The notes: generated by a model from the sequence alone, not told the origin. Shown: positions 9,193 through 25,487, counted from the first letter of the stretch. The stretch is DNA of 32,000 nt from Candidatus Methanoperedens sp. (GCA_027460535.1 JAPZAR010000030.1:60001-92000); one strand, 5' to 3'. Made by a program: numbers and translations.

Positions 9193-9288
9193 ATAAAACC
9201 AGTAAATATGTACGGGATAACAGGATGAACTGGATTTATCATGTGCTCATCAATAAAGTTATTACCCATAAGTGGGATATATGGGATT

Positions 9289-9940: not shown

Positions 9941-9943
9941 TGT

Positions 9944-10290
9944 TATAATTATAAAATCACGCGCGCCGACATGACCCCATGCAACCTCAAGCGCATCGTG
10001 AAAACCAGATTTTTTATGAGCGCTAAAGATAAAAACCACAGAGCGCACAGAGGACACAGAGAAAAACAAATATCTTGAAAATGCCTCCGGGCGGCGCTAG
10101 TCTCCGCAGCGGTCAGATCGCCATCCGAAAGCAGCGCCGCATATCCGTTGGGGGGCACCTGAGATCAGAATAACCTATGACAGCGCTGTATCGCGAATTC
10201 TTACCGCAAAGAACGCAAAGGGCGCAAAGATTTTGCTGCTACGCTTTGCGTTCTTGGCGCACTTTGCGGTGATTTATGTTTAGCAGTTCA
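9944..10290 (+). repeat. Intergenic repeat element copy R3 (longest; carries an extra hairpin module)
   Basis: Starts with tataaaat (9950-9957) followed by cgcgccgacatgaccccatgcaacctcaagcgcatcgtg. It then has the 9-mer tandem cacagagcg/cacagagga/cacagagaa and the core at 10093-10146. A 26-bp imperfect hairpin at 10204-10269 is built from cgcaaag 9-mers. Confidence 0.85.
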
Positions 10291-10304
10291 GTTTTATCAT
10301 AAAT

Positions 10305-10567
10305 TATGACATTCTAACTATAAAATCCCGCGCGCCGACCTGACCCTATGCAACCTCAAGCGCATCGTGAAAACCAGATTTTTGAAGAGCACTGAAAATA
10401 AAAACCGCAGATGAACGCCGATGAACGCAGATTGGCTGCCTGGAAAAACCCCTCCGTCCGGCGCTATCCTCCTCCACATTCCTCTCGCCATCCGAAAGCA
10501 GCACCGCATATCCGTCTGGAGGGAGCAGGGGACAGAATAACCAGCGGCACAGGACTACCAAGATATT
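10305..10567 (+). repeat. Intergenic repeat element copy R4
   Basis: acattctaactataaaat (10309-10326) is followed by cgcgccgacctgaccctatgcaacctcaagcgcatcgtg, the decamer tandem cgcagatgaa/cgccgatgaa/cgcagattgg, the core at 10460-10513, and ggacagaataacc. Confidence 0.85.
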
Positions 10568-10770
10568 TATTACATTCTAACTATAAAATTCTGCGCGCAA
10601 ACGTCCCCCAAGCAACCATCGACGCATCGTGCAAACCGGATTTTCAATCTTCACGATGAATAAAATCCACAGATTGTGCAGATTCGCGCAGATTGGCTGC
10701 ATGGAATCCCCGGCCGGCGCTGTCCTCCGCCGCGTTCATCTCGCCATCCGAAAGCAGCGCCGTATATCAT
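10568..10770 (+). repeat. Intergenic repeat element copy R5 (3'-truncated at the end of the giant gene)
   Basis: acattctaactataaaat (10572-10589) lies 263 nt after the same string in R4. The core is at 10716-10768. Homology to the other copies stops about 22 nt before the stop codon (10791-10793) of the giant ORF. Confidence 0.8.
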
Positions 10771-10790
10771 TCAACCTTTCACCTTTATAC

Positions 10791-13700
10791 CTAAATTACC
10801 AAGAACGATTGGAGTTCAAAGTGATGCCTGGGTTCACTTGGAACGGGCCTTTTCAAATTAAACAGTGCAACGAGACCATTAGCCTTTGCATCCGTGCCAC
10901 CGCCGCTTCTCCAAGGAATAGTTACATCCATAGCATTTCCAGAACAATGATTGCTAACACCAGGATAAGTGTTTGGGGCCCTGTGAGAATCACCTATTTT
11001 ATATCCTTCTGCAGCCTCGTTACCTTTTGCAGCCTCGTTACCTACATATTTGCTTATTGCATTCTGTCTGATTAAGACATACTGATCAATAAGGTCAAAA
11101 ATCTTCCATTCGGGTTTATACCATAAGTTGCCGTCCTCATCTACTGGGTGCGCTCTCAGGTTTTCTATCGGCACTCGATTATTCAAAATGGACCATGCGG
11201 TACTCCACAGATGGGCTTTTTTAGGCGAGCGTACTCCTTCGCCAAACTTAATATTACCGGAAACAAGGTGATTTATAAGCAAATAATCAGAAAGTGATTT
11301 CACATGATTATACAGAGTTGGGCTCAGTTGAACACCATCCAGTTCAAAAAAGAACTCTGGGTCGTATACAATTCGATAGGGGGTCAGGTGTGTTGAACTC
11401 CTCGCCATATATTTATCAAATATATCCATCATAGGCGAAATTAATATTACATCACTTAGAGAAATTTGCCCGCTTGGATCAATTTTATCTGCAGGGGCAG
11501 CATTTGCATAAAGGTATTCATGTAATGAAACTGGATCGAAAATATCGCCTTTATAGGAATCCATTGATATGAAACGCCCAATAGCCTGATTGTAATACCT
11601 TGCTCTAAGATAATAGAACCCTACATTGTGATCATATTGTTCTCCATTATAAAGATAGTTGTTGGCTGTGGAGCCAAATTGTTGTAACAAAAGTCCAAAA
11701 GCGTCATACATATAACTATCTGTTATTGTTCCATTGGAATCCGCTAGCTTTCTTGCGGACATATGGCCATCGTATAGATAATAAGATATTGAACCACTTC
11801 GATTCTGGCTGATGAGATCATCCCCATAAACATAGCTGACAATTGGCATATCTACTCCGTCAGTTTCGAGTAGTACCTGAGCATATGGCTGATTTCCATC
11901 CACCAGATATTTTGTAGTATCTGATCCATCAACTATCTTCTGGACTCGAATGTTATCTCCATTATAGGCATATTCCACAACAGAACTTCCTGAAACATCA
12001 GTTATATCTGCCTTGACTAATCTATTCTGGAAGTCGTATCTGTAGAGCACATTTTCTGTTGCATTGATTCTTTTCAGCGTGTTTCCGTTATTATCGTAAG
12101 TGAAACTGTTGTCCCACTCAGTCAGCAGCCTGTCATTGGCATCATAGGTATACGTTCTACTGGCGTCATCATCCATCTTTATCAAACGGTTCCCTACAGC
12201 ATCATAACTATAGTTGATCATCCGCAATCCCGATACCGGATCATTGATACTCTCATTCGTCAGCTTGTAAGTCTTATCGTAGCTGTAGTCCACCTTCCGT
12301 CCAGTATCTTCTACAACTCTGATCCTGTTTCCTGCAGGTGCGAGTGTGTAGGAATAGGATGAGATGACCCCGCCGACAGATTTACGGTTCAGCAGATTTG
12401 TCATGCGGTTCAGTGAATCATATGTATATTCCGCCACTGCGCCGTTCGGATATGTCACGCTGTCACGATTGCCCACGGCATCGTAGGTGTATGATGTTAC
12501 ACCACCATCAGGGTCGGTCACTGTCGATAGCCTGTTCAGAACATCGAAAGTATAGCTCGTAGTGCCTGAAGGAATGGTCAATAATACCCGATTCCCGGCT
12601 TCGTTATATGCATAAGAGAGGCTCCTGCCATCTGGATCGGTCTGTTTGACCAGCCTGTCACGGGCGTCATATTCATACGAAGTAACGCCTCTGCTATCGG
12701 TCACTGTCTTTCGCTGTCCGCTGGCAGTGTAGGTAAATATATCAGAACTGCCGTCGGGGAAGCTCTTTCTGGTGAGGCGACTGTTGGCATCGTAGGTGAA
12801 TGTCGTGGTATTCCCATTGAAATCGGTCTGCGATACCATATTCCCTGCCGCATCGTAGGCTGCGGTTTCAGACATCCCAAGCGGAAGCGTGCGCTTTGTG
12901 CGCCTGCCGAGCTTGTCATATTCAAATGAGGTGATGTGGTTGTTGGCATCTGTCTGGGAGACCATGTTCCCGGATTCGTCATAAGCATAGGCTGTTACCT
13001 GTCCAAGCGCATCAGTGACCTTCACCAATCTTTCCAGAGCATCATATTCAAACTGCATAGCATTTCCAGCCTGATCAGTTTCTGAGACCTTTATTCCCGA
13101 AGCATCGTATGCTATCGCAGTTGAAGTGCTGTCGGGATATATTGTCTTTATTTTTCTATTTCTGAAATCGTACTGGTACTGGAAAACACTGCCTCTGGCA
13201 TCGGTCATCTGGATTTGGTTGCCGTTATTATCGTATGCGTATGTGGTTGTATTACCCAACGCATCGATGACTGATATTTGTCTGCCTTCCGAATCGTATG
13301 TATAGCTCGTGGGATTGCCGCGCTCATTGATAACTCGCGTGATCCTGCCTGCTGCATCGTACTCAGTCTGCGTAATGTTTCCGTCTGGATAAATGGTTTT
13401 GATCATCCTGCCCAGCTTATCATAGGTGTACCTTGTCGTTCGCCCTGCACGGTCGATTGATGTGTTTTTCCTGCTCTCGACGTCATAGGTATAGCGCTCA
13501 TCTCTGCCATCCGGATATACCATTTTAACAAGGTTACCCTTTGCATCATATTCGCTCTGCAAGCGGTTGCCAAGTTTATCGATCGTGGCAACTTCTTTCC
13601 CATTAGCGTTATATTCTGTAGTGGTCAAATTGCCATAATGATCAATCGTCTGCACCAGCCGGTTTGCCTTATCGTACCCGTACTTCGTAATACTCCCTGA

Positions 13701-16700
13701 AGGCATTGTCTCGTTCAATTTGTTTCCGTTCTTATCATATGCGTATGTGGTTGTATCGCCCAGCGCATCGATGACCGATATCTGCCTGCCTGCTGCATCG
13801 TAAGTGTATCGCGTGGGATTGCTGCGCTCATTGATAACTTGCGTGACCCTGCCTGCTGCCTCATACTCGCTCTGCGTGAAGTTCCCGTCTGGATAGGTGG
13901 TTTTGGTCATCTTTCCCAGCTTATCATACGTGTAACTGGTCGTCCGCCCCGCACGGTCGGTTGATGTGATTTTCCTGTTCTCGACATCATAGGTGTAGCT
14001 CTCATCAGTACCGTCAGGATTCACCAGGCGCGCAAGATTGCCCCTCGCATCATATTCGCGCTCCATGCGGTTGCCCAGCTTGTCGATCGTGGCAGCTTCT
14101 TTTCCGATAGCATCATATTCGGTCGCGGTCGTGTTTCCGTACGGGTCGATGGTCTGCACCAGCCTGTTTGACTTATCATAATCGTACTGCGAAATACCAC
14201 CTGTTGGCGAAGTCTCGCTCAACCGGTTCCCGTTGGCATCATAAGTGTAGGCGAAAACATTCCCCAGCGTATCTGTCTGGCTTACCATATTGCCCGCGCC
14301 ATCGTAGGTGTAGGATGTCACACCGCCCAGCGGGTCAGTCATCCTGATGAGATTCCCTGCCGCATCATACAGGTTGGCGGTCACATATCCCAGCGGGTCG
14401 GTCGTGCTCAGCAGATTGCCGTTAGCGTCATAGGTATTCGTGGTGACATTACCCATGGCGTCAGTGGTAATCAGCATCTGTCCGCGGCTGTTGTAGGTGT
14501 ACGCGACAGTATTTCCCAGCGGGTCTTTCTGGCTCAAAAGATTGTCCTTGCTGTCATAGGTATAGTTTGTCGTATATCCCAGCGGATCGGTCTCTGAGAG
14601 CTTGTTGTCCCTGGCATCATACGTGTATTTTGTCACCCCGCCAAGCGGATCGGTCTTTTGCAACACGTTTCCTCTGTCATCATAGTCATAGGCTGTGATG
14701 CTTCCCAGGCGATCTTTCACGATCTCCTGCCGTGTGCCGATGTTGTGGGTGTATTCGATCCTGTTCCCGTCAGCATCCGTATGCGCGATTACCCTGCCAT
14801 CGTTATCGTATTCTGTCCGGGCGGGCTTGATTCCCCGCGGATCGACGATATCCACAAGACCGTGATCGGAATTGTAGGTGAACCTTGTGGTGCGTCCTTC
14901 CTGATCCGTGACGCTCACAAGATCGCCGTAGTAATCGTACTCGTACCGTATCGTGCTGCCCATCGGGTCAGTGATCTTTGTTATCCGTGCCAGTGCATCC
15001 CTTGTGAAGGTGACGCTCTTTCCTCCGGAGTGGATGATGCCCCCTGCGCCTATGGTTATGGTATTGCCGTTCGTGTCCCTGATACTCTCAAGTCCGGTCG
15101 GCTGGTTGGCGGTATAAACCGCGCCGTCCATCGTGGTGAGCTTGTAGCGGTTGGGATTGATCTCATTGAAATCTGCATCGTACAGTTTGTCGTCTTGAAG
15201 GTAATCGTATGTTACAGGATCAAGTGATTCAAGAGTAGAAAACGTTCCGGATTGAGCAGCAAATGTGAAATAGCCCTGAGCAATACCGGATTCATCTGCA
15301 TACGAAGTCACTGCCTGGACATCGAACTCCTGGTCGCGGGTTCCGGGAATACTCACAACTATGGTATGACTGCTGCTCGCGCTTACTCCCCATTCCAGGC
15401 ACGTACCAAATAATGATCTCTTACAATACAGCCCCCATCCTTCTCCTGGTACGCGATTCTCCTGAAGCTCTATCGACTCAAAGTCAAGAGTCCATCCGAT
15501 GCCGAAATCTCCCTTTGATTTGACCCTGCTGTCATATGTGCGGGTGACCGTGATGGGTATTCCTGCCATCGGGACGGTCAGGTCATTGAAGCTGATGGTG
15601 AAAGCACCGACTTTCATCTCGCCATCGATCTGGTATGTCTTTATGACATAAGCCGTATTCCCGCTTGCGTCCTCCGCAGTGAGTTTGATATCATAGAGAC
15701 CGTTCCTCATCGTTGTCGGGTCAAGCTTGCCCAGGACACCATTCGTTACCGATGAATTCCCGCCTGCGAAGGTGATGAATTCATTTTTATCTTTGGCCGA
15801 GTACTCAAGCCTGTAGCTGATAAGATTTGCATCACTGGCAGTGCCTGTGATATTTGTGGGAAAGGAGAACTTTGAATCATCAGCAGGGGAAGTGATCCCC
15901 ACCGTGGGCAGTATTATATCTCCAGGAGAGAGCACCCTGAATTCTGCTTTATCCAGTCCCTCATTTCCCGCAGCATCGAGTGCAGTGCCAACAGCGGTGA
16001 AGACACCCACAGCTGGAGAGCTATATGTTGCATTCCATGAAGCATCAAGCGCAACAGGTACGCCGTTCACGGTCAAAGATCGTGAGATCACACCTACATT
16101 ATCTGTGGCTTTAACGGTTATTGTGACGGGTTCACCAACATTTGCCTGCGGTATTACGATGACCTCAACTGCAGGTCGGATATAATCCGGGCCTGCCGGA
16201 GGCGCGACGGTCAATGTCTGAGCTGGACTTGAAATTCCGTCACTGGTTGCGTTTATCAGTGTAGTTCCCGGTGCCACAGATGCCGCCAGTCCAGAGGCAT
16301 TGATTGATGCTACACTGGTATTGCTTGATGACCAGACTGCAATTGATATGAGATTCTTTTTAGTGCCGTCTGAATACGTTCCATTGGCAATGAACTGCTG
16401 GGTCTGACCAATAGCTACGGTTGGATTTACTGGTGTAACTGTGATCGAGACAAGTTTTGCAGAGGTTACTGTCAGTGTCCTGGCCGGACTTATGATCCCG
16501 TCACTGGTTGCATTTATCTGGGTAGTTCCGGGTGCTACCGAAGTAGCCAATCCGGTGACATCGATCGTTGCTACACTGGTGTTGCTTGATGACCAGATTG
16601 CTGAAGAGGTGATGTTCTTACTGCTGCTATCTGTATAGGTTCCGTTGGCGGTGAATTGCTGGGTCTGACCCTGAGATATGGTTGGATTTAGAGGTGTTAC

Positions 16701-19700
16701 TGCGATTGAAACCAGTTTCGCAGGGGTTACGGTCAGGATCTCTGCCGGACTGGTTATTCCTTCGCTTGTTGCATTTATCAGGGTATTTCCCGGTGAAACA
16801 GATGTCGCCAATCCTGAGGCATCGATGGTCGCTACACTGGTATTGCTTGACGACCATGCTGCAATTGATGTGATATTCTTTTCAGTGCCATCTGTATAAG
16901 TTCCATTTGCTATGAACTGCCGGGTCTGACCCAGAGCTATGATCGGGTTCACGGGTGTTACTGCTATCGAAACCGGTTTTGCAGAAGTTACGGTCAGCGT
17001 CTGGGCAGGACTTGTTATTCCATCGCTGGTTGCATTTATCAGGGAAGTTCCGGGCGCTACCGAAGTAGCCAATCCGGCGGCATTGATCGTCGCCACGCTT
17101 GTATTGCTCGATGCCCATGTCGCAAATGATGTAATGTTCCTTATACTGCCATCTGAATAAGTTCCATTTGCGACAAACTGCTGAGTCTGACCCAGAGCTA
17201 TCGTGGGATTTAACGGAGTGATAGCGATAGACACTAATATTGCAGAGGTTACAATCAAGACCTGAGCCGGACTGGTTATCCCGGCGCTTGAAGCAGTGAT
17301 ACCGGTAGTTCCTGCTGCTTTTGATGTCGCAAATCCTGAAACATCAATAGCGGCTACACTGGTATTGCCTGATGACCAGGTTGCTGTGGAAGTAATGTTT
17401 TTTATACTCCCGTCTGAGTAGGTTCCATTTGCCATGAACTGTTTAGTCTGACCCAGGGATATTGTGGGATTCACAGGAGTAATTGCTATCGATACCAATT
17501 TTGCAGAAGTTACAGTCAAAGCTTGAGCCGGACTGGTTATCCCTTCGCTTGAAGCTGTAATGTTTATTGTTCCCGCTGATACCGATGTCGCTGTTCCTGA
17601 ATTATCTATAGTGACTACACTTGTATTGCTCGATGACCATGTTGCAATAGATGTGATATTCTTTGTACTGCCATCTGAATATGTTGCATTGGCCGTGAAA
17701 TGCTGTGTCTCACCCAGCGCTATGGCTGGATTTTTGGGTGTAACTTCTATCGATACCAATCTGGCAGATGTAACATTCAAAGTCCTTGCTGTTTCATTTA
17801 CCCATGTAGCGTTTATGTTTCCTGCTATATCGACTGTTCTCGTTCCTATCTCGTAAACTGTATCCGGAGCAAGACCTGTTGCATTGTAGTACGGATTGGA
17901 GATGTTATCTTTCCAGCTCCCGTTCAGGTATATCATCGTATGGTTGAAATCCGAATCCTGAGGATTCGACCATGTCCAGTTTATCCATGTCGTCCCGTTG
18001 ATGGATGCAAGATTTGTTATGCTTGCCGGCGGCGAATTATCCAGCAATGGCGCTGTTCTTGCGGTATGGTTGACCCATGTCTGGTTGATACTCCCGCAAG
18101 GTTGGGGTATATTTCGGAACGTACCAATAGCACTTAATATAGCATTTCGATTTCCATAAAACGTCGGTGGATATCTATCCCCTGTGAAGTACATCCTGTA
18201 CTGATCATCAGATATTCTAACAATTTCTCCCGGCGATACGATACTATAAGGGCCGCCTTCAAGCCCCTTATTATCTATGCGGATGCCGCATTCTTTACTC
18301 CATTTTAAACCGTCTGCTGATACAGCGGTCAAAAGGCGACTGTTCCATTGTGCATCCGCACCACTATAAGACAAGACAAATCTTCCATCTGAAAATTTAA
18401 TTATCCGAGGTGATGATACACCAAAACTATCATAGGTTCCACCAATGTTGATTCTTATTCCTTCTTCTTTTGTCCAGTTAAAGCCGTCAGTGGAAACAGC
18501 GCTAAGAATGCGGTAATTACCATATTGAGAATTCAAACCCTGATAGTACATTCTATAGGTCCCGTCTGATAACTCTACGATATTTGGACCCTCTGCTAAT
18601 ACAGTGTCATAAGTTCCACCATAGTCAATCCTTGTTCCTTGCTCTTTAGTCCAGTTTAAACCATCTGAAGATATCGCACTTAAAATTACCCCTCGTACCC
18701 ATCCTCCAAATGCGTATTCATGATCATAGTACATTCTGTAGGTTCCATCGGAAAGAACTAATACTTCCGGTTCATTTGCCCAACCTTCCTGACCTCCATA
18801 ACCCTCCCCAACTCGAATGCCACTTTCTTTTGTCCAATTCATAGCATCTGAAGAAATCGCACTTCGTATGTTCGTCGGATAAGTATAAGGGGGAACGGAT
18901 GAAGCATCTGAATGATACATCCTGTATTTTCCATCTGCCAATTTGACGATACTGGGATTACTTGCCCAGCCACCATCCAGCCTGATGCCACTTTCAACCG
19001 TCCAGTTCGAACACGGCTCGATACAATCGACAACATCACTTAATCTGGCGGATATGGTGTGTTCTGTATCCTGTGAAAAACCTGTTGCATTGTAGAATCG
19101 AACGCCTTTTGAAACATTGGTCTTGAATATGCCGTCGATGTATATCATTACCTTTGAGAAATCCGAATTTCCCGGTTCTGTCCATGTCCAGTTGATATAG
19201 GTCGGAGCATAGCTTTTGTTTGTCAGGTTGGTTATGCTCGGGCAGGATGTTGTGTCAGTTACAGGCGCCGTCCTTGCAGTGTGATTTACCCAGGTCTGAT
19301 TTATGTTGCCATAAATATCCACAGTCCTGGTCGCAATAATATGCTCTGTATCCGGAGCAAAACCAGTTGCATTAAAGAATTGCACTCCTCTGGCGATATT
19401 ATCTTTGAATACGCCATCTATCCAGACGCTTACACTGGCAAAGTCAGCATCCGCAGGATCAGTCCATGTCCAGTTGATATAGTTCCGGGCATAGCTTACG
19501 TTTGTCAGGTCAGTGATGCTGGCAGGTGGTGTTGAATCACATGATACTTTCTCAGCGCCCACGCCGACCAAGAGATCGGGGGAGGTGTATTTGCGGGCAT
19601 AAATATAATCCCAATCGGCATACGAGCCTGCAGTTGCCCAGACAGTAGAAGAAATAACCACTCTTTGGGTTGCCTCGACTGGTGTGGTTAATGTAGCTGA

Positions 19701-22700
19701 AAACACATCTAGATAATTTGTTCCGTCATAGCTATAACGTAACGCAATTTGTTGTCCGTTCCTTGTGACCTCATACCAGTAGGTGTGCCTGACCCAACCA
19801 TTATTGACTATATCATCAGGAGCAACCAGATTGTTCTTATTAACGAGGTTGGTATCATTATTTACAAGGTATACGGTTATATCGTTATAATTATACCACT
19901 GATCCGTACCGCGGTCGATCAAGAGGTAATCACTAATACCATTTCCTAAAGGAATTATCAGCTTTTGACTTTGTGCACCAGTTCCGGGATAGTTAAAATT
20001 ATACGTCACTTTTGTACGCAAGATCCAGTTATCCCCATCAAAAGGACGAACCAAACTCAGGCTCGGGCACCAGCCACCACTACATCCTTGTCCCGTCCAT
20101 CCTCCTCCATGAGATAGCGGGCCTTGAAGGATATACTTTAAGTATCCTGGGTTATCGGTTAGTGAATAACTACCTTGACCTGACAATACTTGCCAAGATG
20201 AATCCAGAATCGGACTCGAAAAATCATCAAAAAACTCAAAAGTCTTTGTTCCATCGCTCGCACTCGCCGCGCCCGGATTCCCGTAATACATCCGCATGCT
20301 GGTATCTCCGCTTGCGAGTATGCTCGAAACATTCACCCACACCAGCGCGCTCCTGTTCGCATAATCCCATGTCTCAAACCAGTAACTCAACTCGGCGCCG
20401 CCCGCATCCCTGAATCGCAGGTCTGCGCCGCTGGTCTGCGCGCTGGTGGGGAAGGCGCTTCCTGTGAGATTTACAAGCACCTGATAATCAGTCAGGGCGC
20501 TGCCGGGGTTATTGATCGTTATATCCCGGTAATACTGCCAGCCGTCCTGGGTGCACGATGTGATTTCAGGCGCCGTCTTTGTGGTGCGATTTACCCAGGT
20601 CTGATTTATGTTGCCATTCGTATCCACAGTTCTTGTCGCAATACTATGCTCTGTATCCGGGTCAAAACCAGTTGCATTAAAGAATTGCACGCCTCTGGCG
20701 ATATTATCCCTAAATACTCCATCTATCCAGACGCTCAAACTGGCAAAGTCAGTATCCGCAGGATCAGTCCATGTCCAGTTGATGTAAGTAGGGGCATAGC
20801 TTACGTTTGTCAGGTCAGTGATGCTTGCAGGCGGCGCTGCATCACAAAATCCTTTCTCCGCGCCCACGCTGATCGAAGGCTCAGGGGACGTGTATTTGCG
20901 GACCAAAACCCTGCCGGGATAATTTAATGTGGTGTAGCCGTAGTTGTTGTAGAGGTCTGAAACTTCATCTGCATTCAAAGCGCGGTTGTAGATGCGGACT
21001 TCGTCGATTGTGCCGTTGAAATAACTGTTAAGCACAGAGCCTATCGTTAATGGAACATCGCTTGCAGCTATGGTGCCGGATGCATTTGCGGTTGAAACAG
21101 GAATTCCATCAACGTAGAGCACCAGGTTTGTGCCGTTATAGGTGCCTGTTACGTGATGCCAGCCTTTTGTTTGGATCCTGTTGTCAAACACGGAGTATAT
21201 GCCTTTGTTTGTGTTGATGCGCATACCGAAGCCGAAGGGAGTGCTTCCGTAACTGTTCTGACCGAGGCCGTAGAGGAGGCTGTAAGATGCGTTGCTGCCG
21301 GTTGTGTCGTATCTGGTGACTTGACCATTATGCGGCGCGAAATAGACGTTTCTGCCGTCAAAAACCCCACCACCAAAGCCTCCATTTGAATTTGAATTCT
21401 GCACTCCTGTGTCGTAAAATGTCCAAGAGTTCGAGTCCATGAATGAATTTGTTGTGTCGTATTTCATTACCCGACCGTCATAGTAAGGAATGAAAAAGAC
21501 ATATTTGCCGTCAAAGACAGCACCATGGAAGCCTTTTTTACCATAATTTCGAATTCCTGTATCATAAAAGTTCCAGGAATTCGGGTCTGCGAACGAGCCC
21601 AATGTATCGTATCTCGTTACCCTATCAAGAACAATAGGTACAAAATAGACATATCTGCCATCAAAAACTGCTCCTGAGAAACCCATTGAATTTGAATTCT
21701 GAGCTTTCGTATCATAGAAGTTCCAGGAATTCGGGTCTGTGAACGAACCACCAGTGTCGTATCTTGTTACCTGTCCATGACCCGTACCCGGATCTCCGTA
21801 TGGTACGAAATAGATATATTTACCGTCAAAAACCGCACCATAGAAGCCTCTTGAATTTGGATTTTGAGCTCTTGTGTCATAGAAACTCCATGAGATTGAG
21901 TCTGTAAAAGAGCTTGTCGTGTCATATCTTGTTACTTGGCCACCCTTACCTGTATAGGAAGGTGCTGGCACGAAGTAAATATACCTACCATCAAATACTG
22001 CTCCAATAAAACCTATTGAATTTGAATTCTGAGCTGTCGTGTCATAGAAGTTCCAGGAATTCGGATCTGTGAAAGATCCGGCTGTGTCATATCTTGTAAC
22101 CTGCCCGTGATAGGTGTAGGTGTCCCAAACTTCTGGTACGAAATAAATATATCTGCCGTCAAAAACTGCACCATAGAAGCCTTTTGAATTAGGATTCTGC
22201 GCTGCTGTGTCATAGAAACTCCATGAAGCTGAGTCATTAAACGAACCATTTGTATCATATCTTGTAACCTGACCATGATAAACGCCGTTATTGTATGGTA
22301 CAAAATAGACGTATCTCCCGTCAAAGACTGCACCAATGAAGCCTTTTGATTTAGAATTTTGAATTGCTGTATCGTAGAAGCTCCATGAATTCGGGTCTGT
22401 AAAATTACCCGTTCCAGTTTTATCCACAATCGCGCGTATGTTTTCCAGAGACGCGCCTCTTGATGCGTTTACCCATGCTTCGATGCTAATTTCATTCTGA
22501 ATATTCAGACTTGTATCATTCCCAGCATTTGCATAATCTTTCAAGCCATCAAAACTCAGCGCTTTTCCGAACTTCCCGGTAAGCCACATCGGATCATTAA
22601 CTAAAGCCCCATTATTTCCTTTTCCAGAGGTATCATAAGCAGTCACACTCGAACCTTCATCAAAATGCCAGCTTCCCATCACTGGCTTAACATTGTCGAT

Positions 22701-24746
22701 CACCCTCAAGAAGGTTGCATCTACATCGCTCGCTCTCACCGCGCCCGGATTCCCGTAATACATCCGCATGCTCGTGTCTCCGCTTGCGAGTATGCTTGAA
22801 ACATTCACCCACACCAGCGCGCTCCTGTTTGCATAATCCCATTTCTCAAACCAGTAACTCAACTCGGCGCCGCCCGCATCCCTGAATCGCAGGTCTGCGC
22901 CGCTGGGCTGCGCGCTGGTCGGGAAGGCGCTTCCTGTGAGATTTACAAGCACCTGATAATCGGTCAGGGCGCTGCCGGTGTTGTTTATTGTGAGATCACG
23001 GTAATACTGCCAGCCGCCTTGATTACATAATATATCGGATGTTACGGTCAAGGTCTGCGCAGGACTGGTTATTCCTTCATTGGTAGCTGTGATAAGGGTT
23101 GTTCCTGCTCCAACCGATGCTGCTAATCCTGAAGCATCTATAGTAGCTACACTGGTATTGCTCGATGACCAGGTTGCAGTAGTTGTAATGTTCTTTGTAC
23201 TACCATCTGAATAAGTTCCATTAGCTGTGAATTGTTGAGTCTGACCCAGAGTTATTGTTGGATTTTCAGGAGTGATCGCAATCGATACTAATTTTGCAGA
23301 AGTTACGGTCAAGGTCTGCGATGGGCTTGAAATACCGCCGCTTGTAGCATTGATCTGTGTAGTACCTGCGGCGACTGACGTTGCCAATCCAGTATCGCTT
23401 ATTGTTGCTATGCTTGAATTGTCTGACTTCCAGGTTGCAGTGGATGTGATGTTTTTAATGCTGCCATCTGAATAGGTTCCATTAGCGATGAATTGTTGAG
23501 TCTGTCCAAGTGCAATTACCGGGTTTACTGGTGTGAGCGCAATGGATACCAGTTTAGCTGCCGTCACGGTCAAAGTCTGGGCAGGACTTGTAATTCCTCC
23601 CGCGGCAGCAGTAATATCAGCAGTTCCTGCCGCGATTGACGTTGCAAACCCTGATGCAGCTATGGTCGCTGCGCTATGGTTGCTGGATGTCCAGGTTGCG
23701 GTGGAGGTGAGGTATTCCGTGCTGCCATCAGTATAAGTTCCAGTAGCTGTGAACTGCTGGGTCTCACCCAATACTATGGCTGGATTTATAGGGGTTACTG
23801 CTATCGATACCAATTTGGCAGAAGTCACGGTCATAGTTTGTGCAGGACTGGTTATCCCGTCACTGGAAGCTGTGATCTGGCTATTTCCAATAGCCTTTGA
23901 CGTAGCTAATCCAGAAGCATCAATGGTAGCTACACTGGTATTGCTCGACGACCAGGTTGCACTGGCAGTAATATCCTTTGTACTGCCATCGGAATAAGTT
24001 CCATTAGCGTTGAACTGTTTATTCTGGCCAAGAGCTATGGTTGGATTTACAGGAGTAACTGCGATCGATACTAATGTACCAGAAGTTGATCCGTGAGCCT
24101 GGTGGTTTCCACCTTTCAGGTTGCCAGAGACCGAAAGGACGAGTTTGCCTTTGGCATCCCAAATATAAATTGTAGCAGAATCTTTATTGCCAGGCTCTCC
24201 AGCATCGGTAAATATCCAGTGCGCGGAGGCGCCGGGCACACCATTATAGATGCCGGTACCGCTACCTTCATAGGTATCAAAGCCGGCAGAAGGTGGATTG
24301 GGCTTGATGGCAGGATCATCAGTGCACGAGGCTGTGGTGAGATTTTCAAGATGGAACTTATTGCCCTTATCCCAGTTAATTTCGAGGTTGTTCGGGTTCG
24401 TGCTGGCATCGCAGTTCAGCTCGAAGCCGTGCGTTACTCGCATGCTGCCATTGAACACGCTGCCTCCACCGGTCATGCGTCCATTTATTTCAGGAGGGGA
24501 GTAGACATGGTCTATTGCATTGCTCTCAGCACCGATATTCGAGTTAGGTCCATCATTGGCCTTGGGTGTGGAACTCACTTGGCCATTATAATTACTCGGT
24601 ATATAGGTCGGGTTGGGCGTAGTGCTTAATGTTCCATCAAGCTCTGAAGCAGCCGATACAACAGGTACATAAAGAATAGATGAATTCAATATAAGAGTTA
24701 TTAATGCTATTGATAATATCTGAGACAACAAGTCTGATGATTTCAC
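10791..24746 (-). CDS. Giant secreted RHS/YD-repeat polymorphic-toxin-like surface protein (4,651 aa) with a C-terminal LAS/M15-like peptidase domain
   Basis: Single uninterrupted ORF. It has a GTG start preceded by GAGGTGAG, an N-terminal signal peptide, and Big_2, DUF2341-like, LamG-like, FN3-like and propeller modules. Dozens of YD repeats follow (YxYDxxGN...). The RHS core reads YYLRARYYNQAIGRFISMDS...YLYANAAPADKIDPSGQ, followed by a 224-aa variable C-terminus. Confidence 0.92.
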   Translation of the reverse strand: MKSSDLLSQILSIALITLILNSSILYVPVVSAASELDGTLSTTPNPTYIPSNYNGQVSSTPKANDGPNSNIGAESNAIDHVYSPPEINGRMTGGGSVFNGSMRVTHGFELNCDASTNPNNLEINWDKGNKFHLENLTTASCTDDPAIKPNPPSAGFDTYEGSGTGIYNGVPGASAHWIFTDAGEPGNKDSATIYIWDAKGKLVLSVSGNLKGGNHQAHGSTSGTLVSIAVTPVNPTIALGQNKQFNANGTYSDGSTKDITASATWSSSNTSVATIDASGLATSKAIGNSQITASSDGITSPAQTMTVTSAKLVSIAVTPINPAIVLGETQQFTATGTYTDGSTEYLTSTATWTSSNHSAATIAASGFATSIAAGTADITAAAGGITSPAQTLTVTAAKLVSIALTPVNPVIALGQTQQFIANGTYSDGSIKNITSTATWKSDNSSIATISDTGLATSVAAGTTQINATSGGISSPSQTLTVTSAKLVSIAITPENPTITLGQTQQFTANGTYSDGSTKNITTTATWSSSNTSVATIDASGLAASVGAGTTLITATNEGITSPAQTLTVTSDILCNQGGWQYYRDLTINNTGSALTDYQVLVNLTGSAFPTSAQPSGADLRFRDAGGAELSYWFEKWDYANRSALVWVNVSSILASGDTSMRMYYGNPGAVRASDVDATFLRVIDNVKPVMGSWHFDEGSSVTAYDTSGKGNNGALVNDPMWLTGKFGKALSFDGLKDYANAGNDTSLNIQNEISIEAWVNASRGASLENIRAIVDKTGTGNFTDPNSWSFYDTAIQNSKSKGFIGAVFDGRYVYFVPYNNGVYHGQVTRYDTNGSFNDSASWSFYDTAAQNPNSKGFYGAVFDGRYIYFVPEVWDTYTYHGQVTRYDTAGSFTDPNSWNFYDTTAQNSNSIGFIGAVFDGRYIYFVPAPSYTGKGGQVTRYDTTSSFTDSISWSFYDTRAQNPNSRGFYGAVFDGKYIYFVPYGDPGTGHGQVTRYDTGGSFTDPNSWNFYDTKAQNSNSMGFSGAVFDGRYVYFVPIVLDRVTRYDTLGSFADPNSWNFYDTGIRNYGKKGFHGAVFDGKYVFFIPYYDGRVMKYDTTNSFMDSNSWTFYDTGVQNSNSNGGFGGGVFDGRNVYFAPHNGQVTRYDTTGSNASYSLLYGLGQNSYGSTPFGFGMRINTNKGIYSVFDNRIQTKGWHHVTGTYNGTNLVLYVDGIPVSTANASGTIAASDVPLTIGSVLNSYFNGTIDEVRIYNRALNADEVSDLYNNYGYTTLNYPGRVLVRKYTSPEPSISVGAEKGFCDAAPPASITDLTNVSYAPTYINWTWTDPADTDFASLSVWIDGVFRDNIARGVQFFNATGFDPDTEHSIATRTVDTNGNINQTWVNRTTKTAPEITSCTQDGWQYYRDITINNPGSALTDYQVLVNLTGSAFPTSAQTSGADLRFRDAGGAELSYWFETWDYANRSALVWVNVSSILASGDTSMRMYYGNPGAASASDGTKTFEFFDDFSSPILDSSWQVLSGQGSYSLTDNPGYLKYILQGPLSHGGGWTGQGCSGGWCPSLSLVRPFDGDNWILRTKVTYNFNYPGTGAQSQKLIIPLGNGISDYLLIDRGTDQWYNYNDITVYLVNNDTNLVNKNNLVAPDDIVNNGWVRHTYWYEVTRNGQQIALRYSYDGTNYLDVFSATLTTPVEATQRVVISSTVWATAGSYADWDYIYARKYTSPDLLVGVGAEKVSCDSTPPASITDLTNVSYARNYINWTWTDPADADFASVSVWIDGVFKDNIARGVQFFNATGFAPDTEHIIATRTVDIYGNINQTWVNHTARTAPVTDTTSCPSITNLTNKSYAPTYINWTWTEPGNSDFSKVMIYIDGIFKTNVSKGVRFYNATGFSQDTEHTISARLSDVVDCIEPCSNWTVESGIRLDGGWASNPSIVKLADGKYRMYHSDASSVPPYTYPTNIRSAISSDAMNWTKESGIRVGEGYGGQEGWANEPEVLVLSDGTYRMYYDHEYAFGGWVRGVILSAISSDGLNWTKEQGTRIDYGGTYDTVLAEGPNIVELSDGTYRMYYQGLNSQYGNYRILSAVSTDGFNWTKEEGIRINIGGTYDSFGVSSPRIIKFSDGRFVLSYSGADAQWNSRLLTAVSADGLKWSKECGIRIDNKGLEGGPYSIVSPGEIVRISDDQYRMYFTGDRYPPTFYGNRNAILSAIGTFRNIPQPCGSINQTWVNHTARTAPLLDNSPPASITNLASINGTTWINWTWSNPQDSDFNHTMIYLNGSWKDNISNPYYNATGLAPDTVYEIGTRTVDIAGNINATWVNETARTLNVTSARLVSIEVTPKNPAIALGETQHFTANATYSDGSTKNITSIATWSSSNTSVVTIDNSGTATSVSAGTINITASSEGITSPAQALTVTSAKLVSIAITPVNPTISLGQTKQFMANGTYSDGSIKNITSTATWSSGNTSVAAIDVSGFATSKAAGTTGITASSAGITSPAQVLIVTSAILVSIAITPLNPTIALGQTQQFVANGTYSDGSIRNITSFATWASSNTSVATINAAGLATSVAPGTSLINATSDGITSPAQTLTVTSAKPVSIAVTPVNPIIALGQTRQFIANGTYTDGTEKNITSIAAWSSSNTSVATIDASGLATSVSPGNTLINATSEGITSPAEILTVTPAKLVSIAVTPLNPTISQGQTQQFTANGTYTDSSSKNITSSAIWSSSNTSVATIDVTGLATSVAPGTTQINATSDGIISPARTLTVTSAKLVSITVTPVNPTVAIGQTQQFIANGTYSDGTKKNLISIAVWSSSNTSVASINASGLAASVAPGTTLINATSDGISSPAQTLTVAPPAGPDYIRPAVEVIVIPQANVGEPVTITVKATDNVGVISRSLTVNGVPVALDASWNATYSSPAVGVFTAVGTALDAAGNEGLDKAEFRVLSPGDIILPTVGITSPADDSKFSFPTNITGTASDANLISYRLEYSAKDKNEFITFAGGNSSVTNGVLGKLDPTTMRNGLYDIKLTAEDASGNTAYVIKTYQIDGEMKVGAFTISFNDLTVPMAGIPITVTRTYDSRVKSKGDFGIGWTLDFESIELQENRVPGEGWGLYCKRSLFGTCLEWGVSASSSHTIVVSIPGTRDQEFDVQAVTSYADESGIAQGYFTFAAQSGTFSTLESLDPVTYDYLQDDKLYDADFNEINPNRYKLTTMDGAVYTANQPTGLESIRDTNGNTITIGAGGIIHSGGKSVTFTRDALARITKITDPMGSTIRYEYDYYGDLVSVTDQEGRTTRFTYNSDHGLVDIVDPRGIKPARTEYDNDGRVIAHTDADGNRIEYTHNIGTRQEIVKDRLGSITAYDYDDRGNVLQKTDPLGGVTKYTYDARDNKLSETDPLGYTTNYTYDSKDNLLSQKDPLGNTVAYTYNSRGQMLITTDAMGNVTTNTYDANGNLLSTTDPLGYVTANLYDAAGNLIRMTDPLGGVTSYTYDGAGNMVSQTDTLGNVFAYTYDANGNRLSETSPTGGISQYDYDKSNRLVQTIDPYGNTTATEYDAIGKEAATIDKLGNRMEREYDARGNLARLVNPDGTDESYTYDVENRKITSTDRAGRTTSYTYDKLGKMTKTTYPDGNFTQSEYEAAGRVTQVINERSNPTRYTYDAAGRQISVIDALGDTTTYAYDKNGNKLNETMPSGSITKYGYDKANRLVQTIDHYGNLTTTEYNANGKEVATIDKLGNRLQSEYDAKGNLVKMVYPDGRDERYTYDVESRKNTSIDRAGRTTRYTYDKLGRMIKTIYPDGNITQTEYDAAGRITRVINERGNPTSYTYDSEGRQISVIDALGNTTTYAYDNNGNQIQMTDARGSVFQYQYDFRNRKIKTIYPDSTSTAIAYDASGIKVSETDQAGNAMQFEYDALERLVKVTDALGQVTAYAYDESGNMVSQTDANNHITSFEYDKLGRRTKRTLPLGMSETAAYDAAGNMVSQTDFNGNTTTFTYDANSRLTRKSFPDGSSDIFTYTASGQRKTVTDSRGVTSYEYDARDRLVKQTDPDGRSLSYAYNEAGNRVLLTIPSGTTSYTFDVLNRLSTVTDPDGGVTSYTYDAVGNRDSVTYPNGAVAEYTYDSLNRMTNLLNRKSVGGVISSYSYTLAPAGNRIRVVEDTGRKVDYSYDKTYKLTNESINDPVSGLRMINYSYDAVGNRLIKMDDDASRTYTYDANDRLLTEWDNSFTYDNNGNTLKRINATENVLYRYDFQNRLVKADITDVSGSSVVEYAYNGDNIRVQKIVDGSDTTKYLVDGNQPYAQVLLETDGVDMPIVSYVYGDDLISQNRSGSISYYLYDGHMSARKLADSNGTITDSYMYDAFGLLLQQFGSTANNYLYNGEQYDHNVGFYYLRARYYNQAIGRFISMDSYKGDIFDPVSLHEYLYANAAPADKIDPSGQISLSDVILISPMMDIFDKYMARSSTHLTPYRIVYDPEFFFELDGVQLSPTLYNHVKSLSDYLLINHLVSGNIKFGEGVRSPKKAHLWSTAWSILNNRVPIENLRAHPVDEDGNLWYKPEWKIFDLIDQYVLIRQNAISKYVGNEAAKGNEAAEGYKIGDSHRAPNTYPGVSNHCSGNAMDVTIPWRSGGGTDAKANGLVALFNLKRPVPSEPRHHFELQSFLVI
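10794..11465 (-). other. C-terminal toxin domain (aa 4428-4651), LAS/M15 VanY-like zinc peptidase motif set
   Basis: GVRS (R4506), SNHCSGNAMD (H4600-x6-D4607; His codon at 10947-10949) and EPRHHFE (H4641/H4642; codons at 10821-10826). These match the GxRS / SxHxxGxAxD / ExxH pattern of VanY/M15 peptidoglycan peptidases. Confidence 0.65.
11466..15610 (-). other. RHS/YD-repeat shell including the RHS-associated core
   Basis: Begins around ITVTRTYDSRVKSKGDFGIGWTLDFE. It has a continuous run of YD repeats (e.g. YTYDANGNLLSTTDPLG, YEYDARDRLVKQTDPDG). It ends with ARYYNQAIGRFISMDS and DPSGQ (Asp codon at 11478-11480). Confidence 0.9.
16205..17780 (-). repeat. Array of 6 tandem Big_2 domains, 261-nt period
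   Basis: Same 87-aa unit as the first array, present 6 times (TSAKLVSIAxTPxNPTIxLGQTQQF...SPAQTLTV). Confidence 0.85.
18120..19012 (-). repeat. Five-blade Asp-box-like beta-propeller
   Basis: Five units of about 58 aa: (S)A(I/V)SxDGxNWTKExGIRIxxGGxYD...P.IVxLSDGTYRMYY. The SxDGxxW element resembles BNR/Asp-box or GH-type propellers. Confidence 0.55.
19560..20270 (-). other. Concanavalin-like/beta-sandwich domain (unassigned)
   Basis: FEFFDDFSSPILDSSWQVLSGQGSYSLTDNPGYLKY...WILRTKVTYNF...WYEVTRNGQQIALRYSYDGTNY. The pattern resembles a lectin/glucanase-fold jelly roll. The assignment is tentative. Confidence 0.4.
20275..20548 (-). other. DUF2341-like module 2 (about 93-96% nt identity to module 1)
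   Basis: GWQYYRDITINNPGSALTDYQVLVNLTGSAFP...SYWFETWDYANRSALVWVNV...MRMYYGNPGA. A hand alignment to 22745-23020 shows about 20 mismatches in about 290 nt. Confidence 0.6.
20575..20850 (-). other. FN3-like domain 1 (sequon-rich archaeal surface-protein type)
   Basis: PPASITDLTNVSYAPTYINWTWTDPADTDFASLSVWIDGVF...NATGFDPDTEHSIATRTVDTNGNINQTWVN. Related copies lie at 19270-19545, 19045-19265 and 17785-18050. Confidence 0.6.
21300..22410 (-). repeat. Seven tandem repeats of about 53 aa (Kelch-like/beta-propeller-like) inserted inside a LamG-like domain
   Basis: The unit SFTDPNSWxFYDTxAQNxNSxGFxGAVFDGRYIYFVPyxxxxxHGQVTRYDTxG occurs 7 times. It is flanked by LamG-like halves: MGSWHFDEGSS...ISIEAWVNA at 22410-22690, and GWHHVTGTYNGTNLVLYVDG...FNGTIDEVRIYNRAL at 20945-21300. 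Confidence 0.6.
22745..23020 (-). other. DUF2341-like module 1
   Basis: GWQYYRDLTINNTGSALTDYQVLVNLTGSAFP...ADLRFRDAGGAELSYWFEKWDYANRSALVWVNV...MRMYYGNPGA. The DNA is locally very GC-rich. Confidence 0.6.
23040..24085 (-). repeat. Array of 4 tandem Big_2 (bacterial Ig-like group 2) domains, 261-nt period
   Basis: The 87-aa unit LVSIAVTPxNPxIALGQTQQFxANGTYSDGSxKNITSxATWSSSNTSVATIDASGLATSxxAGTTxIxATSxGITSPAQTLTVTSAK is repeated 4 times. Confidence 0.85.
24648..24746 (-). other. Sec-type signal peptide of the giant protein
   Basis: MKSSD (n-region), LLSQILSIALITLILNSSILYVPVV (h-region), and a SAA/SE candidate cleavage site. Confidence 0.65.
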
Positions 24747-24749: not shown

Positions 24750-24757
24750 CTCACCTC
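24750..24757 (-). promoter_or_regulatory. Shine-Dalgarno-like ribosome-binding site of the giant gene
   Basis: The minus strand reads GAGGTGAG aaa GTG, with the start codon at 24744-24746. Confidence 0.5.
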
Positions 24758-25449: not shown

Positions 25450-25487
25450 ATTTGATCTATTCCAATTACCTTCTTCCACCAATATTA

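Follow-up and report, generated by a model that had tools for sequence, protein, structure and literature searches.

A single giant gene in an archaeal 32-kb window (the whole stretch of DNA analyzed, 32,000 nt) encodes a 4651-aa protein that we interpret, with a probability of about 0.6, as a mosaic archaeal polymorphic toxin, i.e., a Sec-exported, stalk-mounted Rhs cage that would carry an anti-murein enzyme and be aimed at bacteria. Judged by its sequence, the protein is an Rhs/YD polymorphic toxin, with a repeat shell, a DPxG core, and a variable tail (Table 1). A predicted murein substrate, an archaeal producer, and the lack of an immunity gene directly downstream together point to bacteria, rather than archaeal kin, as the target.

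Table 1. Features of the giant gene and its 3′ flank, with nucleotide positions counted from the first letter of the window and residues numbered along the giant protein.
Feature	Residues (aa)	Position (nt)	Strand	Basis
Shine-Dalgarno-like GAGGTGA, 4 nt 5′ of the GTG start		24751..24757	-	read from sequence
Hydrophobic leader, MKSSDLLSQILSIALITLILNSSILYVPVVSAA/S	1-33	24648..24746	-	hydropathy
Choice-of-anchor-P / post-COAP-1-like leader domain	~34-224	24075..24647	-	homologs
Four Big_2 Ig-like domains, 87-aa period	225-572	23031..24074	-	profiles above threshold
DUF2341 module 1 and LamG N-terminal half	573-779	22410..23030	-	profile and motif
Seven ~50-55-aa repeats inside LamG	780-1150	21297..22409	-	motifs, tandem DNA repeats
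LamG C-terminal half	1151-1270	20937..21296	-	Laminin_G_3
FN3-like module, DUF2341 module 2, ConA-like domain, two FN3-like modules	1271-1935	18942..20936	-	profiles, motif
Five-bladed-type beta-propeller, GH32N/GH130/BNR kind	1936-2235	18042..18941	-	profiles
FN3-like module 4	2236-2329	17760..18041	-	fn3 E 0.026; INWTW
Six Big_2 domains	2330-2851	16194..17759	-	profiles above threshold
Two Big_7 Ig-like domains	2852-3040	15627..16193	-	Big_7 E 3.6e-9, 2 stretches
DUF6531 and RHS/YD-repeat shell	3041-4346	11709..15626	-	profiles
RHS-associated core, ...RARYYNQAIGRFISMDSY...ADKIDPSGQ	4347-4427	11466..11708	-	TIGR03696
C-terminal toxin, 224 aa	4428-4651	10794..11465	-	predicted divergent VanY-like LAS/M15B zinc peptidase
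850-bp gap 3′ of the stop, no credible ORF		9941..10790	.	three copies of a ~260-nt dispersed repeat

The gene lies on the minus strand (10791..24746) and consists of one uninterrupted 13,956-nt frame, which opens with GTG and closes with a TAG stop at 10791-10793. At the base composition observed here, 4651 codons free of stops would arise by chance with a probability of ~1e-113, and an independent gene caller placed the same start and stop. An identical 4651-aa protein with the same flanks was also recovered in two separate metagenome assemblies, ERZ27247940 (contig k141_415263, 116 kb) and ERZ27247996 (18.8 kb contig), and the single open frame reported in the preliminary description of this DNA therefore stands. 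A chimeric or repeat-collapsed assembly might be suspected for a repeat-rich gene that was put together from short metagenome reads (contig names begin with k141). However, identity among its internal DNA repeats reaches only 69-80%, which, along with the recurrence of the protein and its flanks in two assemblies and a frame that is open throughout, leaves an artefact with a close to negligible probability. A pattern scan across 185,579 species genomes yielded no relatives of the whole giant protein.

Sequence comparisons place the contig within the archaea, closest to Methanosarcinales, in line with the archaeal appearance first attributed to it. This placement draws on neighboring gene families and on one marker gene, IlvD, which is 84-86% identical to sequences from archaeal MAGs (the best matches, labelled to phylum), ~65-71% identical to Methanosarcinales, and at most 61% identical to bacteria. 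Methanosarcinales relatives are not known to make murein.

The N-terminus consists of a hydrophobic leader, with the top 19-residue hydrophobic windows at aa 6-13 (Kyte-Doolittle mean ~2.0) and an AxA-like VSAA/S site that was read from the sequence by eye. This leader might be cleaved as a Sec signal peptide or, equally well, be retained as a signal anchor. The following ~190 aa, initially listed as unassigned, appear instead to belong to a widespread leader domain of choice-of-anchor-P-like type: aa ~34-224 have >1200 homologs, typically 60-74% identical over ~130 aa and N-terminal in diverse surface proteins. One of these proteins comes from Ca. Methanoperedens and another bears the name "choice-of-anchor P family protein", while the NF041523 profile scored below threshold (20.6 bits, cutoff of 40).

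Adhesin-type modules account for ~65% of the giant protein, and profile searches (HMM scans) recovered nearly all of the domain map drawn initially. All 10 Big_2 units (4 + 6) exceeded the profile threshold, and the two DUF2341 modules were matched at E 3.7e-20 (module 1, aa ~616-684) and 4.9e-27 (module 2, aa 1440-1519). Laminin_G_3 matched the C-terminal half of the LamG domain (aa ~1152-1263, profile positions 59-151 of 151, E 5.5e-22), and the propeller at aa 1936-2235 was matched by Glyco_hydro_32N (E 2.1e-10; 41 bits, cutoff 22.1), GH130 (5.4e-7), and BNR_2 (2.4e-4). The insert that splits the LamG domain contains seven copies each of the motifs VTRYDT and GAVFDG and gave weak PQQ_2 and PD40 propeller matches; it probably forms a seven-bladed beta-propeller. 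The parts of the map for which profile matches were weak or missing are the LamG N-terminal half, recognized by motif and by eye only, the ConA-like domain, for which GH43_C2 and DUF1349 matches were both sub-threshold, and the four FN3-like modules, which share an INWTW motif (aa 1322, 1757, 1851, and 2255) with a single, sub-threshold fn3 match in module 4. A Pfam profile search revealed no recognizable murein-binding domain in the stalk. N-glycosylation sequons are enriched in the stalk (85 observed vs 47 +/- 6 expected) and not in the shell (15 vs 17), which suggests that the stalk is probably N-glycosylated. Overall, the profile matches bear out the original view of a very long Ig/lectin/propeller stalk, and the hydrophobic N-terminal segment is compatible with the Sec-type leader placed ahead of it.

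In the Rhs region, 28 stretches matched RHS_repeat (PF05593; E 1.6e-155) and 17 matched TIGR01643 (E 2e-143), DUF6531 was detected above threshold at aa 3045-3090, and a TEN_YD-shell match was already precomputed for the giant protein. The TIGR03696 core is intact and full length (positions 1-76 of 76; 55.3 bits, cutoff 32.5), with a GRFISMD motif upstream of the DPSGQ at aa 4423-4427 that forms the core end and is presumed to be an aspartyl autoprotease site. A complete shell and core ending in DPSGQ, as proposed from inspection of the translation, is borne out by these profile searches. The nearest shells are 45-59% identical, in alignments that cover ~76-78% of the query and end at DPSGQ; all the named ones are bacterial, and their tails are unrelated to the one found here, the tail domain being absent from 120 of the 120 nearest shell relatives. 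Two shell relatives, with shells 45% identical, harbor a murein hydrolase in the toxin slot, namely an M23 (P0202) and an NlpC/P60 (P0268) enzyme.

The tail had been described as a variable C-terminus, and conserved motifs, a family profile, and an AlphaFold model searched with Foldseek now support its assignment as a divergent VanY-like LAS/M15B zinc peptidase, and hence a putative murein peptidase. No Pfam family matched the tail, even at E <=1, and a phmmer search against PDB sequences returned only noise. Motifs common to the tail homologs are VRSPxxAH, SNHxxGNAMD, and ExWH, and in alignments of 96 and 65 divergent members the R, H-x6-D, and E-x2-H residues are invariant or near-invariant. 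The corresponding residues are all present in the tail (R79, H173-x6-D180, and E211-x2-H214, plus H215, in tail numbering), although this copy reads EPRHH and lacks the near-invariant Trp of ExWH, a change that might reduce or alter activity. When the family profile was compared to the PDB, the top four matches were all VanY/VanXY-type D,D-peptidases with aligned catalytic motifs (E 0.008-0.012 for VanY chains and 0.27 for VanXYc). A first AlphaFold model built from 11 sequences (pLDDT 74.9, weak Foldseek E) was superseded by one from 65 sequences (pLDDT 89.4), for which the top 13 Foldseek matches in the PDB were all VanY, VanXY, or LdcB (best E 7.5e-4, probability 0.99) and included the VanXYc dipeptidase/pentapeptidase near the top, while the best viral structural match was a phage Peptidase M15B (E 5e-5). 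TM-scores to solved M15B structures were only 0.30-0.40, which suggests a distant M15B relative. By homology, the tail would act on D-Ala-containing murein peptides, with a bond specificity likewise extrapolated from these relatives.

The tail family comprises ~237 clusters. Among 96 scanned members, 6 matched Pfam VanY (PF02557; best 3.5e-5) and none contained RHS repeats, while the other domains detected were eCIS_core (21), PG_binding_1 (12), SH3_3 (9), SH3_4 (2), and LysM (1); in multi-domain members, the tail domain forms the C-terminal end. The closest relatives (49-53% identical) combine a DUF4157 (eCIS_core) domain with the tail domain, which suggests that the latter is a toxin cassette common to both vehicles. 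The GC content of the tail is 0.413, vs 0.484 for the shell. This low-GC payload, the bacterial relatives of the shell, and a sequon enrichment limited to the stalk count in favor of a mosaic origin of the giant protein.

Downstream of the toxin gene, no immunity gene was identified directly 3′ of the stop, either in the ORF list or in an independent gene call, up to a PIN gene that belongs to a convergent PIN/MazE pair beyond the 850-bp gap. Three small minus-strand ORFs (10346-10561, 10318-10509, and 9949-10158) were considered as immunity genes and rejected, as they lie inside repeat copies and were not called independently. The ~260-nt repeat itself was evaluated for folding into a structured RNA or an attC-like hairpin, for which z-scores of -1.3 and -0.6 gave no support, and for a role as a tail-swapping recombination site, which was dismissed because copies elsewhere do not sit beside Rhs genes; these copies adjoin toxin-antitoxin-like cassettes, group II intron reverse transcriptases, and metabolic genes. 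Scans of the window revealed no Rfam families or tRNAs. The genes surrounding this locus include members of families DUF7521 and DUF7343 as well as genes for surface proteins of CARDB/NEW3 type. No T6SS, T7SS, or CIS genes were found in the 32-kb window and no PAAR in the protein, and VgrG, an Eag chaperone, and a clade domain were likewise absent from the protein and its 32-kb neighborhood, in agreement with the initial reading of the window as free of PAAR, VgrG, and T6SS genes. An immunity gene could be located elsewhere in the genome.

In the mechanism that we propose, the Sec-type leader and the choice-of-anchor-P-like domain would mediate export and possibly also tethering to the cell, and the Ig-like, FN3-like, lectin-like, and propeller modules, ~3,000 residues in all, would form a long, probably N-glycosylated stalk. 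The lectin-like and propeller modules may recognize glycans on a target cell, as suggested in the preliminary description. At its distal end, a bacterial-type Rhs/YD cage would hold the 224-aa domain inside, with the core ending in DPSGQ expected to self-cleave. Once out of the cage, the payload, a putative VanY/LdcB-like M15B zinc peptidase, would attack D-Ala-containing stem peptides of peptidoglycan or of its precursors, and this cleavage would weaken or lyse the bacterium. A Methanosarcinales-related producer would have no murein of its own and would thus need no immunity protein, and none is encoded at the locus. A precedent exists in secreted archaeal peptidoglycan hydrolases, which kill bacteria (PMC12352652). 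Points against this reading are the lack of a Pfam match for the tail, its TM-scores of 0.30-0.40, the EPRHH sequence, and the absence of a murein-binding domain in the stalk. Characterized Rhs cages also deliver unfolded payloads into the cytoplasm of the target (PMC8765631, PMC11461821), and by analogy their use of a dedicated secretion system, vs a Sec-exported cage with a wall-acting enzyme here, counts against it as well.

This mode of delivery is also what recommends a variant of our best explanation that shares its target organism and differs in compartment. Namely, the payload might act in the bacterial cytoplasm in the manner of VanX/VanXY, cutting D-Ala-D-Ala or UDP-MurNAc-pentapeptide and starving wall synthesis. 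VanXYc is among the top structural matches and known Rhs cages do place their unfolded payloads in the cytoplasm (PMC8765631, PMC11461821), but the PG_binding_1, SH3, and LysM domains of family relatives favor action on the wall and no membrane-translocation module is evident in the protein, so we consider the cytoplasmic variant unlikely. A slightly lower probability still goes to a contact-dependent toxin of WapA type acting between related archaea, with lectin and propeller modules that would bind archaeal surface glycans. Polymorphic toxins classically target kin (PMC3482391), and the WapA-type delivery logic put forward in the preliminary description holds insofar as a Sec-type leader, a stalk, an Rhs region, and a variable tail occur without a T6SS. 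It fails at the payload, which is peptidase-like and not a nuclease, and at the immunity gene, which a kin-directed WapA-type system requires and which is missing 3′ of the toxin gene, and the kin model is weakened accordingly. The payload family moreover appears to consist of murein peptidases, with murein-binding domains in relatives, and Methanosarcinales relatives would not offer a murein substrate.

The ~65% of adhesin-type modules could alternatively indicate an adhesin or surface-matrix protein, e.g., one that attaches the cell to its bacterial partners within a consortium, in which the Rhs region and tail would persist as a decayed or non-toxic relic or serve only as a murein-binding tip. 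The replaced Trp of ExWH and the missing immunity gene would both be compatible with such a role, but the zinc ligands, catalytic Glu, and Arg are all kept, the core is intact and full length, and the 13,956-nt frame remains open through shell and tail, all of which makes this explanation improbable. We regard as very improbable that the payload targets the wall polymer of another archaeal lineage, such as Methanobacteriales pseudomurein or the peptide links of S-layer or methanochondroitin structures. Methanobacteriales often co-occur with Methanosarcinales, and a producer without that polymer would need no immunity. However, pseudomurein peptides contain only L-amino acids, the pseudomurein endoisopeptidases known to us are all cysteine peptidases, and the detected relatives of the tail (VanY, LdcB, PG_binding_1, SH3, and LysM) all point to murein.

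To our knowledge, evidence for archaea attacking bacteria is very recent and has so far concerned contractile injection systems and secreted enzymes that are small and soluble. The locus described here suggests a third antibacterial route, in which an archaeon would have captured a bacterial toxin cage, mounted it on a native-looking stalk, and turned it against a substrate known only from bacteria. Computational work has already predicted RHS/YD-repeat toxins for a minority of archaea, and these toxins are thought to be bacterial acquisitions (Zhang 2012, PMC3482391; Makarova 2019, as cited in PMC12352652 and 10.64898/2026.07.27.741052). We would put at somewhat below even odds the broader claim that this is the first Rhs-type Sec-dependent weapon of Archaea against Bacteria, with a glycosylated stalk whose reach may be at most on the order of 100 nm, a cage of bacterial origin, a murein peptidase, and no immunity, and with a payload from an unannotated VanY-like toxin family common to eCIS cargo. 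Targeting across domains predicts that an immunity gene should be missing, and this absence may serve as a simple genomic signature for more such weapons. The ~237-cluster payload family may likewise be regarded as a set of candidate antibacterial enzymes, mostly missed by domain-based surveys given that only 6 of 96 members match VanY.

WapA of Bacillus subtilis is a tRNase toxin that acts on kin and is followed directly downstream by its immunity gene wapI. The giant protein resembles it in its putative signal-peptide-type export, the absence of a T6SS, and the succession of a YD/RHS shell, a core, and a variable C-terminal toxin, and differs in its predicted murein peptidase payload, the missing immunity gene, the archaeal producer, and a ~3,000-aa stalk. 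With T6SS Rhs effectors such as RhsA of P. protegens, Tse5, and Tse15, it shares a closed YD cocoon, a C-terminal aspartyl-protease core motif (DPxG), and an encapsulated variable toxin (PMC8765631, PMC10684867, PMC11461821), features that are here predicted from sequence; unlike these effectors, it has no PAAR, VgrG, Eag, or clade domain and no immunity gene, and combines a Sec-type leader with a giant stalk. The pairing of a cage with a wall-degrading enzyme is also known from bacterial Rhs proteins with a peptidoglycan hydrolase (M23 in P0202, NlpC/P60 in P0268, and the Tox-LD-peptidase class, PMC3482391), although the hydrolase families differ from the one proposed here, and Imm16 and Imm57 are the immunity families given for the Tox-LD-peptidase class (PMC3482391).

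Among the enzymes themselves, VanY, VanXY, and LdcB (MEROPS M15B) have the R, SxHxxGxAxD, and ExxH motifs in common with the tail, whereas identity is ~14%, TM-scores are 0.30-0.40, and the tail contains an extra helical insert and falls below Pfam detection. These enzymes function in wall maintenance or vancomycin resistance, whereas the tail would be toxin cargo. Closer in purpose are Woldo and Danwoldo of Halogranum salarium (PMC12352652), which, as predicted for the tail, are archaeal, directed at bacterial murein, and made by a producer without self-target. Both are small, soluble, Tat-secreted proteins that pair an M23 or glucosaminidase domain with PG_binding_1 and were found through Pfam domains (PMC12352652), whereas the giant protein places a Pfam-invisible payload, without a murein-binding domain, in an Rhs cage that tops a giant stalk. 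When compared to the criteria used for archaeal modular peptidoglycan hydrolases (PMC12352652), it contains neither a Pfam catalytic nor a Pfam murein-binding domain, and a survey of that design would thus miss it. Finally, eCIS/PVC cargo proteins with DUF4157 carry a domain of the same family as the tail, and the difference lies in the vehicle, i.e., a contractile injection system in their case and an Rhs cage in the protein described here.

The giant protein is encoded by a single uninterrupted reading frame, as the preliminary description had claimed. The 4,651 codons start with GTG, a Shine-Dalgarno-like GAGGTGA lies 4 nt upstream, and a stop-free run of this length would arise by chance with a probability of ~1e-113 at the given base composition. 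An independent gene caller predicted the same protein, and its identical sequence, with unchanged flanks, was found on a 116-kb and an 18.8-kb contig, each from a separate ENA assembly. Since the tandem DNA repeats inside the gene (Big_2 units and the seven-repeat insert) are only 69–80% identical, a collapsed or chimeric assembly is an unlikely source of this ORF. Profile searches recovered most of the modules previously read from the translation, in essentially the same order and including a complete RHS shell and core, with DPSGQ (aa 4423–4427) at the exact end of the core; support was weak, or recognition by eye only, for the ConA-like domain, the N-terminal LamG half, and the four FN3-like modules with "INWTW". 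The GH32N-like propeller reads GWASNPS in place of WMNDPN, the nucleophile motif of GH32 enzymes; its nucleophile Asp may therefore have been replaced, and the module may be a non-catalytic, lectin-like binder.

Features of the giant gene, its protein, and the surrounding window (nt, window positions; aa, residues of the giant protein)
Feature	Position	Strand	Remark
Giant ORF	nt 10791-24746	-	4,651 codons, GTG start
Big_2 x4	aa 225-572		above threshold
DUF2341 #1	aa ~616-684		above threshold
Seven ~50-55-aa repeats	aa ~780-1150		motif counts; propeller hints weak only
Laminin_G_3, C-terminal half	aa ~1152-1263		above threshold
DUF2341 #2	aa 1440-1519		above threshold
GH32N/GH130/BNR-type propeller	aa ~1936-2235 (nt 18042-18941)		above threshold
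Big_2 x6	aa 2330-2851		above threshold
Big_7 x2	aa 2852-3040		above threshold
DUF6531	aa 3045-3090		above threshold
RHS/YD shell	aa 3041-4346		RHS_repeat, 28 stretches, E 1.6e-155; TIGR01643, 17 stretches
RHS core	aa 4347-4427		TIGR03696 full length, 55.3 bits vs cutoff 32.5
Tail	aa 4428-4651		224 aa after DPSGQ
HepT/MNT pair	nt 7306-7638, 7635-7988
PIN with 81-aa partner	nt 8224-8622, 8603-8848
MazE/AbrB-like with PIN	nt 9241-9552, 9503-9940
~260-nt repeat copies	nt 7990-8190, 8890-9175, 9925-10215, 10295-10570, 10560-10768
Inverted repeat	nt 10203-10270
Winged-helix regulator	nt 25081-25482	-	HTH_20/FUR/TrmB-like
DUF7521 protein	nt 25488-25739	-	small membrane protein
Two ABC-transporter units	nt 26243-31950		a secreted CARDB/NEW3-type protein after each
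CARDB/NEW3-type proteins	nt 26917-28110, 30967-31950		C-terminal hydrophobic segment in each

The tail had neither a Pfam match nor a direct sequence match in the PDB. An exhaustive profile search gathered 237 clusters of homologs (at 50% identity), and in multi-domain family members this domain forms the C-terminal end. An R, an H-x6-D, and an E-x2-H are invariant or near-invariant across the family alignments, a pattern that we take to be the LAS constellation of VanX and VanY, i.e., a transition-state Arg, His/Asp/His zinc ligands, and a catalytic Glu. When the PDB was searched with the family profile, the best four matches were all VanY/VanXY-type D,D-peptidases (VanY, E ~0.01; VanXYc, E 0.27), on which the family motif SxHxxGxAxD aligned with SEHQLGLAVD and ExWH with EPWHY; the Trp of ExWH, near-invariant in the family, is replaced in the giant protein (EPRHH). 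An AlphaFold model of the tail (65 sequences; pLDDT 89.4, pTM 0.82) had VanY, VanXY, or LdcB as all of its top 13 PDB matches (best E 7.5e-4, probability 0.99), with TM-scores of only 0.30–0.40 and ~14% sequence identity, and its best viral match was a phage Peptidase M15B (E 5e-5). By motif and predicted fold, the tail would qualify as an M15B peptidase, but it misses the Pfam threshold. Among 96 family members scanned for Pfam domains, 21 carried eCIS_core (DUF4157), 12 PG_binding_1, nine SH3_3, six VanY, two SH3_4, and one each LysM and Pesticin (a lysozyme-type toxin), while RHS_repeat was found in none; the toxin cassette of the giant protein appears to circulate as eCIS cargo too. At 3027–3991 of L084, a 175-aa tail homolog (P0010) follows and overlaps an ORF that weakly matches PG_binding_1; a frameshift has probably split a single gene here. 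This homolog likewise had no adjacent immunity candidate, with no gene called in the ~1.4 kb downstream.

Among 5.8 billion proteins, the nearest shells were only 45–59% identical, and most aligned to about 76–78% of the query, DPSGQ being at 76%. The tail domain was absent from all 120 nearest shell relatives; in those whose core end could be identified, it is followed by a tail of ~190–285 aa. The organism names on these relatives were all bacterial (Acetivibrio, Herbivorax, cyanobacteria, and Actinomycetia). Two of the shell relatives, ~45% identical in the shell, have murein hydrolases in the C-terminal toxin slot: a Peptidase_M23 (P0202, aa 1417–1517 of 1522) and an NlpC/P60 (P0268, aa 1280–1386 of 1407). 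Together with the RHS-borne Tox-LD-peptidase of the 2012 toxin catalogue (PMC3482391), these provide precedent for wall-degrading payloads in bacterial Rhs cages, and such payloads may be commoner than the searched literature suggests.

The N-terminal ~130-aa domain is 60–74% identical to >1,200 proteins and represents a widespread leader of archaeal and bacterial surface proteins; its best named match is from Ca. Methanoperedens, one homolog is named choice-of-anchor P family, and its NF041523 match was below threshold. N-glycosylation sequons (N-x-S/T) were nearly two-fold enriched in the stalk (window 15627–24647; 85 vs 47 ± 6 expected), whereas the rest of the protein (window 10794–15626) was at chance level in the shell (15 vs 17 expected) and had none in the tail. 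In composition, this contrast points to a mosaic gene history or to differing exposure of the parts. The GC contents of stalk, shell, and tail were 0.464, 0.484, and 0.413, respectively. Taken together, sequons, GC, the spread of the N-terminal domain, and the bacterial affinity of the shell suggest an archaeal-adapted stalk joined to a bacterial-type Rhs cage and a separately acquired toxin cassette.

The archaeal character of the surrounding genome was upheld by a single marker gene, the neighbouring IlvD, which was 84–86% identical to two archaeal MAGs labelled at phylum level, about 65–71% to Methanosarcinales (Methanosarcina, Methanosalsum, Methanothrix, and others), 55–56% to Methanobacteriales, and ≤61% to any bacterium ("Methanobacteriota" is the NCBI phylum containing Methanosarcinales). 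No rRNA or tRNA genes were found in the window. Archaeon-compatible neighbours include members of the DUF7521 and DUF7343 families. The CARDB/NEW3 surface proteins beside ABC transporters also fit an archaeon, and this archaeal-looking cluster has no evident link to the giant toxin. Immediately upstream, on the same strand as the giant gene, lie the winged-helix and DUF7521 genes, which may form a dedicated regulator pair; the 334 bp in between include an AT-rich, TATA-like stretch.

Downstream, no immunity gene was found in the 850 bp after the stop codon, which hold only dispersed-repeat copies and were also empty in an independent gene call. Beyond this repeat-filled gap lies a convergent PIN/MazE pair, part of a dense toxin–antitoxin cluster (window 7306–9940) whose small pairs are bracketed, like a cassette array, by copies of a ~260-nt repeat. 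Five same-orientation copies occur in the window (zero expected by chance), sharing the invariant core CGCCATCCGAAAG.AGC.CC...TATC, the last one broken off ~22 nt before the giant gene stop codon. Full-length copies (70–88% identity) were found on six other metagenome contigs, including about ten in 3.6 kb among small TA-like ORFs (L095) and others adjoining group II intron reverse transcriptases (L087). The repeat had no Rfam match and no significant fold, and is a candidate MITE-like element or cassette boundary. Between two copies, an inverted repeat (27-nt arms, 81% complementary, 14-nt loop) may form a terminator-like hairpin.

We propose that the giant protein would be exported by Sec and possibly retained via an uncleaved leader or the N-terminal domain, with an extended, glycosylated stalk whose lectin-like and propeller modules are candidate binders of target surfaces. 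The tail would be cut off at DPSGQ, kept inside the Rhs cage, and released upon bacterial contact to attack D-Ala-containing murein peptides or, in a VanX-like variant, their cytoplasmic precursors. We know of no Sec-dependent Rhs protein for which the release step is established. Archaea of the Methanosarcinales type are not known to synthesise murein or pseudomurein, so that the producer would be intrinsically immune, which would explain the missing immunity gene.

Compared with known systems, the giant protein lacks all of the delivery hallmarks of T6SS effectors: as stated in the preliminary description, there was no PAAR in the protein (domain search) and no T6SS gene in the 32-kb window, which also lacked T7SS and CIS genes. 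The likeness to Rhs/WapA-type stalked polymorphic toxins stands for shell, core, and variable tail, and fails for the immunity gene, absent at this locus. Archaeal polymorphic toxins were reportedly predicted by Makarova in 2019, according to citing papers. Such computational predictions, already mentioned in the preliminary description, date back earlier (PMC3482391), and in 2025 archaeal peptidoglycan hydrolases were shown to kill bacteria (PMC12352652). Those hydrolases are modular enzymes of small size, secreted by Tat or Sec, and were found through a Pfam-domain filter that the giant protein would not pass.
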